This document shows, piece after piece, positions 34,447 through 58,134 of a stretch of 64,000 nucleotides of DNA. The stretch is taken from NCBI GenBank assembly GCA_965232515.1, contig CBDDPY010000002.1, forward strand, positions 7,232,001-7,296,000. The letters are read 5' to 3'. The notes beneath the pieces were generated by a model, which did not search any database, was not told the origin of the DNA, and was given only the letters and a program-made list of their open reading frames with translations. The translations under genes were made by a program, and so were the position numbers. Each line of letters opens with the position of its first letter. Positions within the stretch are counted from its first letter, which is position 1. This stretch comes from Alphaproteobacteria bacterium. Its GTDB lineage: Bacteria > Pseudomonadota > Alphaproteobacteria > GCA-2731375.

Positions 34447-35571
34447 ATGACGAACAAGCGGAATTTGTGGTTGATGACGACGGCGATGGCGGTCGGACTG
34501 ACCTTCGGCGCGCAGGCCAAGGACACGGGCTACATCTTCGTCAGTAGTGAAAAAGACAATGCGATCAGCGTGCTGGACGGCAAATCTTATGAGCTGGTCA
34601 AGAAGATCGGCACGGCGGCACGGCCGCGGCATCTGCAGTTCAATCCCGACCGGACGCTGATCTATGTCGCCGCCGGCGACGGCAGCGCCATTGACGTCAT
34701 CGACGTCGGCAAGCTGGAACTTGTCGACCGGATCGGCGAGATCGACGACCCGGAACTGTTCGATCTCAGCCCCGACGGCAAGATCATGTACATCTCACTC
34801 GAAGATGACGCCAAGCTCGGCATTCTCGATCTCGAAACCTATTTCGCCGAACGCGAGGAAAAGCCTGAGCTGACGGTCGCCGCGCCGAGCGAGGACGACG
34901 ATGACGATGATGATGATGACGATGACGACGATGACGACGACGAGGAAGCCCGGGAAGACGACGACGACGATGACGAGATGCTGCCCGGCATGAAGACCGT
35001 CGAGGTCGGCGGCGAGCCGGAAGGCGTTCTGGCCAATCCCGACGGCAAGACCGTCTATGTGACATCCGAAGTCGCCAACATCGTGCACGTCGTCGACACC
35101 GAGGCGCTCGAAATCACCAAGAACGTCGTCGTCGGCAACCGGCCGCGCCGCTTTGTGATGACGCCGGACGGCAACGAGCTCTGGGTGTCCAATGAACTGA
35201 GCGGATCGGTCAGCATCCTGGATGCGAAAACCTACGACATCCTCGATACGATCAGCTTCCTGCCGCGCGGTTTCCGGCCCGAGGAAGTGACGCCGGTCGG
35301 CGTCACGATGACGGACGACGGCAGTACCGCCATCGTCGGCCTCGGCCGCGCCAACCACGTGGCCTTCGTCGACACCGCCAGCCGCAAGATCGAGGACTAT
35401 GTCCTGGTCGGCGAGCGGGCCTGGAACACGACCTTCAATCGGGACAACTCGCTGCTGTTCGTGACCAACGGGCTCAGCGACGACATCTCGATCATCGACG
35501 TCGCGTCCCGCAAGGTGATCAAGTCCGTACCGGTCGGCCGCGTGCCTCATACGGTCCTGATCGACGACTAG
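34447..35571 (+). CDS. PQQ-catabolism-associated YVTN beta-propeller protein (PedA2-like) with poly-Asp insertion
   Basis: Signal peptide, FVSSEKDN, ARPR, DPELF, EPEG, YVTSE, GRANHVA, VTNGLSDD and PVGRVP. Heads the ABC operon. Confidence 0.85.
   Translation: MTNKRNLWLMTTAMAVGLTFGAQAKDTGYIFVSSEKDNAISVLDGKSYELVKKIGTAARPRHLQFNPDRTLIYVAAGDGSAIDVIDVGKLELVDRIGEIDDPELFDLSPDGKIMYISLEDDAKLGILDLETYFAEREEKPELTVAAPSEDDDDDDDDDDDDDDDDEEAREDDDDDDEMLPGMKTVEVGGEPEGVLANPDGKTVYVTSEVANIVHVVDTEALEITKNVVVGNRPRRFVMTPDGNELWVSNELSGSVSILDAKTYDILDTISFLPRGFRPEEVTPVGVTMTDDGSTAIVGLGRANHVAFVDTASRKIEDYVLVGERAWNTTFNRDNSLLFVTNGLSDDISIIDVASRKVIKSVPVGRVPHTVLIDD
34891..34977 (+). repeat. Acidic low-complexity tract E-D16-EEARE-D6-E, encoded by mixed GAC/GAT codons
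   Basis: Read directly from the sequence: 27 of 29 residues are acidic, in frame. Confidence 0.95.
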
Positions 35572-35577
35572 ACCGCC

Positions 35578-36753
35578 ATGGGGCGATTGTTGGTCTGGCT
35601 GCTCAGCGCCGTTCTGGCGCTGGGCGCCGCGGCGCCGGTGGTGGCAGAAGACTTCACCATCGGCTATCTGCAACTGAGCAAGGATCCGCGCTACAGCAAA
35701 AAGCGGACCTTCGCCCGGCTGCTGCTGCAGCCCCTGGGCAGGCCTTATACGGGCGCGCGGGTTGCGATCGATGAGGTGAAATTCCACGGCGCGGCCGTCG
35801 GCGTCACCTTCAAGGTCAAGCGGCACAAGGGCAAGGGCTCGCTGGGCCTGCTGGAGGGCGTGGATAAGCTTCACGCCGACGGCGTGCGCTTTTTCGTGGT
35901 CGATGCGCCGGCAGATGTCCTGAGCGAGCTGGCCGGGGCAACCAAGGGCCGCGATCTCCTGCTGTTCAACGTCTCGGCGCGCGAGGACCGTCTACGCCAG
36001 GACCAGTGCCAGGCGCACCTCCTGCACGTCATCCCGAGCTACGCCATGCTGACGGACGCGCTGGTCCAATACCTGATCACGCGGAAGTGGCGCGAGATCC
36101 TGGTGCTGGAGGGCAAATCCGACGACGACAAGCAGTTCGCCGCGGCTTTCGCCCGCTCGGCCAAGCTCTACGGTGCCGAAGTCGTCGAGAGCCGGCCGTT
36201 CGTGCTCAGCAACGACCCGCGCCAGCGCGATCAGAACAACATCACGCTGCTGACAACAGGCGCCGACTATGACGTGGTTTTCGTCGCCGATACCGACGGC
36301 GAGTTCGCGCGCGATGTGCCCTATCAGACGGCGCGGCCGCGGCCGGTCGTGGGTAGCGAAGGCCTGGGTGCGGCGGCTTGGCACTGGGCCTGGGAACGGC
36401 ACGGTGCGCCGCAGCTTGAAAACCGCTTCCAGGACAAGGCCAAGCGGCCCATGCGCGACATCGACTGGGCGGCCTGGATGGCCGTGAAGGCGGTGGCGGA
36501 GGCGGTTCAGCGCACCGAGAGCAAGGACTTCGCCGTTCTGCGCGACTATCTGCGCGGGCCCGATCTTGTGCTCGACGGCTTCAAGGGCAACCGGCTCAAC
36601 TTCCGGCCCTGGAACAACCAGCTGCGCCAGCCGATCCTGCTGGTGACGCATAATTGGGTGGTCGAGCGCGCGCCCATGAAAGGCTTCTTGCATCAGACCA
36701 ACAACATGGACACCCTGGGCTTCAACGAGACGAACAGTGGCTGCCGGTTTTGA
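35578..36753 (+). CDS. ABC substrate-binding protein, PQQ-dependent alcohol dehydrogenase system (PedA1/LutA-like)
   Basis: LRQDQC, HVIPSYAMLTDALVQYL--RKW, DYDVVFVAD-DGEF, PRPVVGSEGL, WERHGAPQL--RF and FRPWNNQLRQP. Confidence 0.85.
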   Translation: MGRLLVWLLSAVLALGAAAPVVAEDFTIGYLQLSKDPRYSKKRTFARLLLQPLGRPYTGARVAIDEVKFHGAAVGVTFKVKRHKGKGSLGLLEGVDKLHADGVRFFVVDAPADVLSELAGATKGRDLLLFNVSAREDRLRQDQCQAHLLHVIPSYAMLTDALVQYLITRKWREILVLEGKSDDDKQFAAAFARSAKLYGAEVVESRPFVLSNDPRQRDQNNITLLTTGADYDVVFVADTDGEFARDVPYQTARPRPVVGSEGLGAAAWHWAWERHGAPQLENRFQDKAKRPMRDIDWAAWMAVKAVAEAVQRTESKDFAVLRDYLRGPDLVLDGFKGNRLNFRPWNNQLRQPILLVTHNWVVERAPMKGFLHQTNNMDTLGFNETNSGCRF

Positions 36754-57102: not shown

Positions 57103-57120
57103 GGCCGGGCGCGCCTCCGG

Positions 57121-58134
57121 CTAGGGCACGGGCAGGCCGTCGAAGATCTGCTGCAGAAGATCTTCGGCCGTCATGTCGGCCGCCTCCGCCTCGTAGGTAA
57201 TCAGCACGCGGTGACGCAGCACGTCCATGCCGATCGACTTCACATCCTGCGGCGTGACGTAGCCGCGCCCGCAAATGAAGGCATGCGCCTTCGCCGCCAG
57301 CGCCAGATAGATCGACGCCCGGGGCGAAGCGCCGAAATCGACATAGGCGCCGATGTCGAGGCCGTGCGCCGCCGGTTCGCGCGTCGCATGCACGACATCG
57401 ACAATGTAGTTCTTGATCTTGTCGTCGAGATAGATGCTGTCGACGGTTTGCCGCGCCGCCAGGATATCGGCCGTCGTCGTGACCGGGTCGGCCTTTTCCT
57501 GCGGCTGCGTCGTCGCCATGCGTTCCAGGATCTGCAATTCCTCGTCGCGGCTCGGATAAGAGATCTTCAGCTTCAGCATGAAGCGGTCGAGTTGGGCTTC
57601 GGGCAGCGGATAGGTGCCCTCGTGTTCCAGCGGGTTCTGCGTCGCCAGCACCAGGAAGGGGTGCGGCAGCGGGAAGCTCTCCTCGCCGATCGTCACCTGA
57701 CCTTCCTGCATGGCTTCCAGCAGCGCGCTCTGCACTTTCGCGGGCGCCCGGTTGATCTCGTCGGCCAGCACGATGTTGGCGAAAATCGGTCCCTTCCGGA
57801 CGCGGAACTCGCCCGACTGCGGCTGATAGATCAGCGTGCCGATCAGGTCGGCCGGCAGCAGGTCGGGGGTGAACTGCACGCGCTGGAAATCGGCTTGCAG
57901 CGCTTCCGACATTGCCGTCACGGCACGCGTCTTGGCCAGGCCCGGCACGCCCTCCAGCAGCACGTGGCCGTTCGCCAGCAGGCCGACCAGCAGGCGCTCC
58001 AGCAGGTAGTGCTGGCCGATGATGACCCGGCCCATCGCCGCCATCATGTCCTCGACGAACCGGCTTTGCCGTTCGACCTCCGCGTCGATCTCCTGCACGT
58101 CGCGCGGCGTCAACGGAAGTATCTCGCGCAACAA
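57121..58134 (-). CDS. MoxR family AAA+ ATPase
   Basis: LLEGVPGLAKT, QFTPDLLPAD, LADEINRAPAKVQSALLEAM, ATQNP-E-EGTYPLPEAQLDRF and GASPRA. Confidence 0.95.
   Translation of the reverse strand: MLREILPLTPRDVQEIDAEVERQSRFVEDMMAAMGRVIIGQHYLLERLLVGLLANGHVLLEGVPGLAKTRAVTAMSEALQADFQRVQFTPDLLPADLIGTLIYQPQSGEFRVRKGPIFANIVLADEINRAPAKVQSALLEAMQEGQVTIGEESFPLPHPFLVLATQNPLEHEGTYPLPEAQLDRFMLKLKISYPSRDEELQILERMATTQPQEKADPVTTTADILAARQTVDSIYLDDKIKNYIVDVVHATREPAAHGLDIGAYVDFGASPRASIYLALAAKAHAFICGRGYVTPQDVKSIGMDVLRHRVLITYEAEAADMTAEDLLQQIFDGLPVP

Follow-up and report, generated by a model that had tools for sequence, protein, structure and literature searches.

An acquired PQQ dehydrogenase module with a MoxR/VWA operon lies beside shared cofactor and transporter genes in an alphaproteobacterium

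We analysed a 64,000-nucleotide stretch of DNA from an alphaproteobacterium, referred to here as the window. Four operons occupy positions 34447–58134, and one of them encodes the pyrroloquinoline quinone (PQQ) dehydrogenase that is the subject of this work. The window is ~66% GC. Hence, reading frames were picked using codon-position GC, and the open reading frames (ORFs) were checked against Pfam and NCBIfam. Operon A, on the plus strand (34447–38311), encodes a β-propeller, a substrate-binding protein, an ATP-binding cassette (ABC) ATPase and an ABC-2 permease. Operon B, on the minus strand (44248–38563), contains pqqA, pqqB, pqqC, pqqD and pqqE, with genes for an NMT1/SsuA-type binding protein, a permease and an ATPase. 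Operon C is on the plus strand (44779–50971), divergent from pqq, with 530 nt between pqqA and the start of the dehydrogenase gene. It encodes the dehydrogenase, a cytochrome c, a small secreted protein with an ORF of 130 aa that we call small130, a DUF1800 protein, a DUF1501 protein and a further secreted protein, p137, with an ORF of 137 aa. The intergenic distances are −4 to 76 nt. Operon D, on the minus strand (58134–50978), converges on operon C, and 6 nt separate their ends. Its genes encode MoxR, a DUF58 protein, a BatD-N/DUF4381 protein, BatA-like and BatB-like von Willebrand factor A (VWA) proteins, a TPR protein and an S8 protease, and start and stop codons abut or overlap through most of the operon. 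An original prediction, made from these letters, had named the genes of all four operons; every gene that it named was found in its place. The DUF4381 gene, between the DUF58 and VWA genes, was missing from its list. The same prediction took the whole 24 kb to be one self-contained pathway. This is contradicted by comparison of gene neighbourhoods and by the single-copy status of the pqq and transporter genes. Instead, the 24 kb consists of two different parts side by side: shared PQQ and lanthanide housekeeping at 34447–44248, and an acquired module at 44779–58134.

The dehydrogenase gene (44779–46569, plus strand) belongs to an uncharacterised clade. Its product matches PF01011 with 233.7 bits, against a gathering threshold of 26.7. 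With TIGR03075, the methanol/ethanol family model, it scores 412.2 bits and falls under the cut-off of 480.05, which four other paralogues of the genome pass. The best match in the PDB was PedH (261 bits). Scores were 228–252 bits for type II alcohol dehydrogenases (ADHs), 205–228 for XoxF and 166–184 for MxaF. For the genome's XoxF5-like paralogue the equivalent scores were 1015 bits to 6OC5, ~660 to MxaF and 380 to PedH, and its type II ADH paralogue scored 1030 bits to 1KB0. Thus, the dehydrogenase is further from every solved type than the solved types are from one another.

We aligned the protein with PedH, to which it reads as about one third identical. The sequence RSFF stands at the position of the PedH vicinal Cys-Cys, D328-Y-D330 stands at the position of the PedH D-F-D, and the metal-ligand Asn is followed by 11 inserted residues, two of them Cys. 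The extra Cys residues of the protein are C282/C286 and C45/C51. All four were invariant in the 32 aligned members of the clade, as were E208, N274, D328, D330 and K353. Judged by their alignment positions, E208, N274, D328 and K353 would have metal-site or PQQ-site roles. In an alignment of 143 sequences, RSFF or RTFF replaced Cys-Cys in all 13 clade members. Cys-Cys was missing in 71 of the 143, so its absence is not rare in the wider superfamily; its loss does set the clade apart from all characterised alcohol and methanol dehydrogenases. The D-x-D motif was present in 110 of the same 143. Export of the dehydrogenase by the twin-arginine translocation route was considered and dropped, since the TRRHML motif occurs in 3 of 32 members and is not conserved.

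The 143-sequence tree recovered the clade as monophyletic (support 1.0), with a stem of 0.73, a largest within-clade distance of 0.68 and the nearest outsider at 1.7. The midpoint root separated the dehydrogenase from the XoxF5-like paralogue, in a tree without named XoxF1–4 references. By structure scores and phylogeny the enzyme lies outside XoxF, MxaF, ExaF/PedH and type II ADH, as had been proposed. At least 120 homologues, from metagenome-assembled genomes of several phyla, share 70–97% identity with it, and identity across phyla within the clade is 66–80%. When a library was clustered at 50% identity, full-length relatives beyond the clade began at 41–43% and then dropped to 37–38%. The nearest relatives from cultured organisms are Rhodococcus qingshengii and Skermanella plasmid genes (41–44% identity). 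We compared 25 related genome loci (locus and genome handles begin with L and G, respectively). These come from metagenome-assembled genomes that are, by record title, Rokubacteria, Rhodospirillaceae, other Alpha- and Gammaproteobacteria, Burkholderiaceae, Acidimicrobiia and Jiangellaceae. Small shares were also seen in coral, marine and sediment metagenome sequencing runs, from which we draw no habitat claim. Our literature search found no description of this gene combination; in the supplements of the surveys, the clade may already have a type or stand among the 'unclassified'. The accessible texts of PMC11996626, PMC10875860 and a 2026 preprint give no sequence-level key to Keltjens ADH types 1–9.

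The genes after the dehydrogenase are largely conserved. Denominators for the 25 loci are our own counts of those with enough sequence. A monohaem cytochrome c with the motif CRQCH (46646–47086, plus strand; PF13442, 50.7 bits; PedF and MoxG models match weakly) follows the dehydrogenase in 23 of 25 loci. Of the two loci that lack it, one ends 2 nt past the dehydrogenase and the other, L012, runs into insertion sequence-like ORFs. Next comes small130 (47092–47484, plus strand) in 21 of the 22 loci with room. This secreted protein of ~110 aa has a signal peptide, two invariant Cys (C32 and C66) and a GWT motif, and belongs to no known family. Its 22 family members gave no consistent Pfam match. 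The predicted fold, with a predicted local distance difference test score (pLDDT) of 84, had no PDB match at E ≤ 0.001. A predicted complex of the dehydrogenase (residues 36–596) with small130 (residues 21–130) scored 0.00 in both runs, and nothing is drawn from it. The gene for p137 (50558–50971, plus strand) is present in 13 of 20 loci with room. Clustering of ORFs from all 25 loci, all against all, revealed no other neighbour conserved in more than 6. Neither operon C nor the conserved neighbours of the 25 loci include a XoxJ/MxaJ-like gene, and in this respect the original prediction was correct.

The p137 protein is a secreted β-sandwich of ~114 aa with a signal peptide and no Pfam family. 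Conserved positions, many of them acidic, include D44, H52, D60, E95, D99, D101 and E111. The predicted fold (pLDDT 90) has a pilotin as its best structural match (E 2e-4, template modelling score ~0.5), and a protein language model places the sequence near Ig_CycH clusters (score 0.90). The protein had earlier been labelled CcmI-like, and we do not retain the label: PF23892, the profile that a CcmI/CycH-like protein should match, hits nothing in the genome at E ≤ 1 and none of 14 family members, so that what is left is the language-model resemblance and the weak pilotin-like fold, with no support from hidden Markov models.

A reverse search with the small130 alignment yielded 67 metagenome loci, 65 with a tblastn match. 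The cytochrome c gene lies directly upstream of small130 in 58 of 58, and a dehydrogenase of the clade lies upstream in 28 of 34. The remaining 6 carry the cytochrome–small130 pair without any PQQ dehydrogenase. Hence, small130 goes with the cytochrome and not strictly with the dehydrogenase; it would be a partner of the cytochrome. These six loci are two groups of near-identical contigs. In L089, L091 and L094 the pair adjoins a dihaem protein of the CCP/MauG type and another cytochrome, and in L117, L118 and L123 it adjoins a YNCE-like propeller and a 3-keto-disaccharide-hydrolase-like protein. The p137 gene was found in 12 of 41 metagenome loci, followed by the S8 gene in 5 of 7 and by a DUF4381-like gene in 2 of 7.

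The DUF1800 gene (47515–49329, plus strand; PF08811, 365.7 bits) and the DUF1501 gene (49356–50561, plus strand; PF07394, 88.4 bits) behave differently. The two had been cast as accessories that would travel with the dehydrogenase. They do not: the pair is missing from every one of the 25 genome loci and from all 65 metagenome loci, and was seen only in strains about 90–98% alike. It is a recent, lineage-specific insertion that lies outside the conserved system. Contigs from RNA-seq libraries of three studies, 90–98% alike, cover the region. One spans 44547–48171 (dehydrogenase, cytochrome, small130 and the start of DUF1800) and another spans 49210–50681 (the end of DUF1800, DUF1501 and the start of p137). 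These contigs bridge the junctions of the insertion and thus strains ~92% alike share it. A second DUF1800/DUF1501 pair lies elsewhere in the genome (C2:5316785-5318929). In two of the RNA libraries, the contig that holds pqqA (43804–44437) had a mean depth of ~1057 and 657, the contigs over pqqB–E 92 and 29, and those over the dehydrogenase operon 36 and 28; contig depths of this kind cannot rank genes.

Operon D begins with the gene for a MoxR-type AAA+ ATPase (57121–58134; PF07726, 215.7 bits, and PF17863). Next are a DUF58, VWA-like protein (56215–57102; PF01882, 276.8 bits), a membrane protein with a BatD-N-like and a DUF4381 region (55247–56212; PF14316 and PF13584) and a VWA protein with a BatA N-terminal domain (54228–55253; PF07584 and PF00092; NF047508, 143.6 bits). 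A BatB-like VWA protein (53195–54217; PF13519 and PF00092; NF047506, 96.7 bits) and a BatC-like TPR protein (52365–53201; TPR Pfam families; NF047507, 56.3 bits) follow; all three NF scores are below cut-off. The last gene encodes an S8 subtilase (50978–52339; PF00082, 82.8 bits) in which the Asp, His and Ser motifs are present and which matches mycosin and QhpE models weakly. All seven genes are on the minus strand. Among loci with at least 8 kb of sequence downstream, 6 of 13 carry the full MoxR-DUF58-DUF4381-BatA-BatB-TPR operon convergent to the dehydrogenase cassette, and 4 of these 6 include S8. In L013 the MoxR gene is divergent, at the contig edge, and in L014, L015 and L018 a stand-alone DUF4381 homologue is all that follows p137. 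Two loci are rearranged: p137 has moved in L005, and pqqE is inserted downstream in L007. Such a pqqE, 61–65% identical to that of the window, is convergent between small130 and p137 in L007, L063, L068, L072, L073 and L106, which form one sub-lineage.

The operon also follows the cassette when the two are apart. In G001, the genome of L008, the whole orthologous operon lies 1.67 Mb from the cassette (identities: MoxR 78%, DUF58 70%, BatA 62%, S8 50%). In G002, a MoxR protein 67% identical and a DUF58 protein 56% identical are encoded on another contig. The genomes of L001, L014, L018 and L020 encode DUF58 orthologues at 66–72% identity, and orthologues at 44–72% were found in cassette-bearing genomes only. 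We also drew an even sample of 251 genomes of the window's class and called DUF58 at E ≤ 1e-60. The small130 family was found in 4 genomes, DUF58 in the same 4, and p137 in 3 of them. From identical contig coordinates, two of these genomes are apparently those of L004 and L014. The fourth, G155, holds a divergent cassette, with identities of 65% for the dehydrogenase, 49% for the cytochrome and 27% for small130, and this cassette too is convergent with a MoxR-to-TPR operon; p137 and S8 were not found there. Overall, the distribution of p137 follows that of the MoxR operon. Outside the signal peptide, no residues separate dehydrogenases that occur with p137 and the operon from those that occur without (L011 was left out). 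Thus, the genes at 47092 and 50558 and the MoxR-Bat-S8 operon travel with the dehydrogenase, as the original prediction anticipated.

Closer relatives of the host lack these genes. The small130 family was present in 0 of 60 closer relatives, and a DUF58 orthologue in 0 of 32 genomes of the same family, with the best match elsewhere 37% identical. Taken together, the phyletic and neighbourhood data mean that the cassette entered along with the MoxR operon, at a site next to an older pqq locus. The region 44779–58134 is a horizontally acquired, mobile module of a dehydrogenase with its putative maturation genes. The dehydrogenase, cytochrome and small130 form the core; an extended form has p137 and the convergent MoxR operon in addition. 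We observed directly which genes the module holds, where its dehydrogenase falls in the tree, which neighbours are conserved and how the genes co-occur across genomes.

Three MoxR loci were detected in the genome by tblastn. One is a second MoxR-DUF58-DUF4381-VWA-VWA-TPR-441aa operon (G000:C2:1219987-1229393, equivalent to L037:5987-15393), directly upstream of a different orphan PQQ dehydrogenase, for which the PedH score is 354 bits. This dehydrogenase lacks Cys-Cys, has D-W-D, and is followed by a conserved 163-aa protein. The arrangement is modest evidence that MoxR/VWA sets and orphan quinoproteins are linked more generally. A Methylobacterium aquaticum plasmid carries the dehydrogenase–163aa pair. 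We had considered this plasmid match as an mxa cluster, and it turned out to be the orthologue of the genome's second orphan dehydrogenase.

The other part, positions 34447–44248, holds genes that are not particular to this dehydrogenase. Operon A begins with a PedA2-like periplasmic β-propeller (34447–35571; TIGR03866, 311.8 bits against a cut-off of 287.3) and continues with a PedA1-like substrate-binding protein (35578–36753; TIGR03863, 461.9 against 413.6), a PedB-like ABC ATPase (36750–37502, start codon approximate; TIGR03864, 359.7 against 302.25) and a PedC-like ABC-2 permease (37310–38311, true start probably near 37500; PF01061, 107.5 bits, frame by GC at third codon positions), all on the plus strand. 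According to the text available from PMC12997753, PedA1A2BC of Pseudomonas putida is a lanthanide importer required for PedH-dependent growth, and PedA2 carries the same family name as the propeller of the window. The propeller had been described as having a poly-Asp stretch, and an acidic poly-Asp/Glu loop is indeed present at about residues 146–178. Among its best 120 homologues (63–95% identity), every one has a stretch of 35 residues with 13 or more D/E (median 23), and 82 have a D/E run of at least 8. The acidic loop is a trait of the family. In a protein of lanthanide uptake, such a loop could bind cations; we know of no description of it, and made no search for one.

Operon B holds all five pqqABCDE genes in order, on the minus strand. 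The first, pqqA (44171–44248), encodes 25 aa that end in CEINCYACAEY and include E-x-x-x-Y, which we take to be the PqqA motif. The others are pqqB (43191–44120; PF12706, 142.4 bits), pqqC (42451–43200; TIGR02111, 379.9 bits against 240), pqqD (42163–42447; PF05402, 60.6 bits) and pqqE (41075–42166; radical SAM and SPASM domains, PF04055 and PF13186). The linked NitT/TauT-type transporter comprises an NMT1/SsuA-type substrate-binding protein (40072–41199; PF09084, 45.8 bits; TIGR01728 below cut-off), a BPD_transp_1 permease (39315–40085; PF00528, 70.5 bits) and, as last gene, an ABC ATPase (38563–39318) with Walker A GPSGCGKTT and Walker B LLLMDEP. The genome encodes seven full-length PQQ dehydrogenase paralogues. 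By tblastn there is a single set of pqqB, pqqC and pqqE and a single copy of the TIGR03866/TIGR03863 transporter in the whole genome. One pqq operon and one Ped-type transporter serve all seven enzymes. PqqB, PqqC, PqqD and the Ped-type propeller and binding protein were found in 0 of the 25 related genome loci. PqqC is 93% identical in G006, a genome of the same genus that is 81% complete, and the family relative G008 keeps the run of pqqBCDE, NMT1-type binding protein, permease and ATPase without the cassette. The pqq operon and the Ped-type transporter are inherited within the family without the dehydrogenase. Positions 34447–44248 are shared PQQ and lanthanide housekeeping, and the suggestion that these genes are dedicated to the dehydrogenase fails.

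We propose the following scheme for the module. The periplasmic dehydrogenase would pass electrons to its own cytochrome c. The small130 protein would work with this cytochrome, and electrons would leave through the two. The MoxR/VWA machinery, with p137 on the periplasmic side, would load the active-site metal into the dehydrogenase, and the S8 protease may process one secreted component. In the accessible part of PMC12276312, MxaR, S, A, C, K and L (a MoxR ATPase and VWA proteins) are described as required for Ca insertion into MxaFI, MxaJ as loading PQQ into MxaFI, and MxaI as releasing MxaJ; XoxF is said there to need none of MxaR, S, A, C, K and L. Because a Mxa-like motor in a similar gene order here accompanies an enzyme with a lanthanide-type motif, we read the arrangement as a candidate for MoxR/VWA-assisted metal loading. 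Since the D-Y-D motif is invariant, a lanthanide is the suggested metal. With D-x-D as the one guide, we rate a lanthanide as rather more probable than Ca. We consider it probable that the MoxR operon is functionally coupled to the cassette, whereas a role in metal insertion, argued by analogy, has in our judgement an even chance. As an overall account, we lean towards shared housekeeping beside an acquired quinoprotein module with MoxR/VWA-assisted metal loading. The most detailed version, a clade of lanthanide enzymes that needs a MoxR/VWA motor, an acidic p137 chaperone and S8, and that uses a cytochrome with a new-fold small130, would be unlikely to hold in every part.

Several observations weigh against this account. 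We infer that the enzyme binds PQQ and a metal, as we do the route of its electrons and the part played by the maturation genes. The RNA-library contigs are assembled, from strains 90–98% alike, and are no proof of transcription or of a single transcript. Since the cytochrome–small130 pair was seen without a dehydrogenase in 6 of 34 loci, part of the cassette is not dehydrogenase-specific. The operon is unlinked to the cassette in G001 and G002, and the pairing of p137 with the operon is not absolute because G155 has the operon without p137. The layout of the second MoxR operon and dehydrogenase is kept in one of four orthologous loci (G100, not G013, G155 or G197). Nor is the operon universal: in eight cassette-bearing genomes p137 was not found, and no DUF58 exceeded 42% identity. 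Six of these eight form one Rokubacteria-like clade on the dehydrogenase tree and therefore represent approximately one evolutionary event; the other two, L012 and L016, fall between positives on that tree, and their negatives may come from gaps in the assemblies. Neighbouring positions could also stem from joint transfer in one block and not from shared function. Finally, the available text of PMC11996626 notes D-x-D in Ca/Mg-dependent enzymes as well, e.g. membrane glucose dehydrogenase, and treats the lanthanide link as assumed.

Four rival explanations were considered. That the whole 24 kb is one self-contained pathway, with pqq, both ABC transporters and DUF1800/DUF1501 all dedicated accessories, would fit the contiguity of the genes, the divergent pqq and dehydrogenase operons 530 nt apart, and the placement of DUF1800/DUF1501 within operon C, with short gaps and with junctions bridged by RNA-library contigs. 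We regard it as very improbable, given the absence of DUF1800/DUF1501 (0/25 and 0/65) and of PqqB, PqqC, PqqD and the Ped-type propeller and binding protein (0/25) from related loci, the one pqq operon and one Ped-type transporter for seven dehydrogenases, and the family relatives that have pqq and its transporter without the cassette. If the MoxR-DUF58-VWA-TPR-S8 operon were instead a generic Bat-type envelope or stress system, functionally unrelated and co-transferred on one island, then its unlinked position in G001 and G002 and the failure to find an orthologue in the Rokubacteria-like clade, where the dehydrogenase is still kept, would be readily understood. MoxR operons of the Bat type occur very frequently, three MoxR loci are present in this genome, and NCBIfam names the proteins BatA-, BatB- and BatC-like, all below cut-offs. 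Yet the operon subfamily was found in exactly four cassette genomes of 251, from four different families, and stays in the genome when unlinked. Adjacency survives the rearrangements in L013, L005 and L007 and the DUF1800/DUF1501 insertion of the window, and is kept by the divergent G155 cassette. With the Mxa precedent (PMC12276312, in the part available), this makes a generic system an unlikely explanation.

A third possibility keeps the metal-loading role and changes the metal. The enzyme would be Ca-dependent, the MoxR/VWA set would insert Ca as in MxaFI, and D-Y-D would not be diagnostic in this clade. The only MoxR/VWA set with a known PQQ-enzyme role inserts Ca, and XoxF does without one (PMC12276312, as far as its text was available). 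Furthermore, D-x-D occurs in enzymes reported to be Ca/Mg-dependent (PMC11996626, same limit) and is common here (110/143). Conversely, D330 is invariant in 32 of 32 members, and this second Asp coordinates the lanthanide in every type resolved by a metal-bound crystal structure, according to the available text of PMC11996626. Lanthanides are in use in the host, since the genome keeps a Ped-type transporter and a XoxF5-like enzyme. We therefore treat Ca-dependence as doubtful, though the least remote of the four rivals. The last concerns small130, which might be a small structural subunit of the dehydrogenase, equivalent to MxaI, and not a partner of the cytochrome. MxaI is encoded at a comparable position within the mxa cluster; in 21 of 22 genome loci small130 comes after the dehydrogenase and the cytochrome, and the protein is small and secreted with two invariant Cys. 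This proposal is hard to reconcile with the 58 of 58 metagenome loci in which small130 adjoins the cytochrome, or with the 6 of 34 that contain no PQQ dehydrogenase, and small130 has no sequence or fold relative. We think it improbable.

Other features of the window lie outside the module. A GC-rich inverted repeat at 38380–38470, in which ...CTCTCCCGCAAGCGGGAGAGGG... occurs twice in opposite sense, separates the two convergent transporter operons; it looks like a repetitive extragenic palindromic (REP)-type element or a bidirectional terminator. A scan of the operon for promoters and terminators gave nothing above shuffled background. The upstream flank (18970–30855) contains a CHAT-TPR protein gene (18970–22239, plus strand) and, on the minus strand, a two-partner secretion (TPS) pair of TpsA (22244–27934; 1896 aa, TPS domain) and an ShlB-type TpsB (28141–29856), and a DUF1194 protein gene (29953–30855).

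To our knowledge, metal acquisition by PQQ dehydrogenases is understood only for the Ca-dependent MxaFI, and we know of no insertion factor for lanthanide enzymes. The lanthanide motif, the co-occurring MoxR/VWA/protease operon and the two novel secreted proteins provide a defined gene set for the metal-loading question. Were the most detailed version above to hold, the module would contain the first machinery dedicated to lanthanide insertion. The list of specific accessories no longer includes DUF1800/DUF1501, pqq or the Ped-type transporter.

Comparison with known systems places the module as follows. The sister clade, represented by Rhodococcus qingshengii and Skermanella plasmids, also lacks Cys-Cys, has D-F/Y-D and has a cytochrome c gene next to the dehydrogenase. 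There, the third gene encodes an annotated 'transporter substrate-binding domain' protein, which may be J-like, in place of small130, and no p137 or MoxR operon is annotated nearby. With PedH/ExaF, the module shares a best PDB match (PedH, 261 bits) and a PedA2A1BC-type transporter in the window; PedH has Cys-Cys and lacks the 11-residue Cys-bearing insertion. Like PedA1A2BC, the window's transporter has a propeller, binding protein and ATPase above NCBIfam cut-offs, from which lanthanide transport may be predicted. However, it is the only one of the genome and is not syntenic with the clade elsewhere. The XoxF-XoxG-XoxJ system has in common with the module D-x-D, a cytochrome c directly downstream and a lanthanide-transporter context in the genome. 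Conversely, the dehydrogenase is outside the XoxF clades (at most 228 bits, against 1015 for the genome's own XoxF5-like enzyme), and the module lacks Cys-Cys and XoxJ and has a MoxR/VWA set that XoxF reportedly does not need.

Bat operons have the same MoxR, DUF58, DUF4381/BatD-like, BatA, BatB and TPR BatC-like genes in the classical order. Here, the BatA-, BatB- and BatC-like proteins score below curated cut-offs, and the operon subfamily is restricted to cassette genomes in the sample searched and usually ends in S8. An organisational parallel is with MxaFI of Methylorubrum and Methylobacterium, where a periplasmic eight-bladed PQQ dehydrogenase likewise has a dedicated cytochrome c (MxaG) and small secreted proteins encoded beside it. 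The set of MoxR, DUF58, two VWA and TPR domains is present and co-occurs with the dehydrogenase; the MoxR AAA+/DUF58/VWA/VWA genes are in much the same order as in MxaRSACKL, a likeness judged by domain content. The differences are considerable. MxaF has D-Y-A, as opposed to D-Y-D here, and the score to MxaF structures is 166–184 bits. The module is without vicinal Cys-Cys and without an MxaJ-like protein, and small130 and p137 have no detectable relation to known families. Whereas the Mxa accessory operon is co-directional, the operon here is convergent and ends in an S8 protease gene. We read the arrangement as a variation on Mxa-type organisation, in an uncharacterised and widespread clade.

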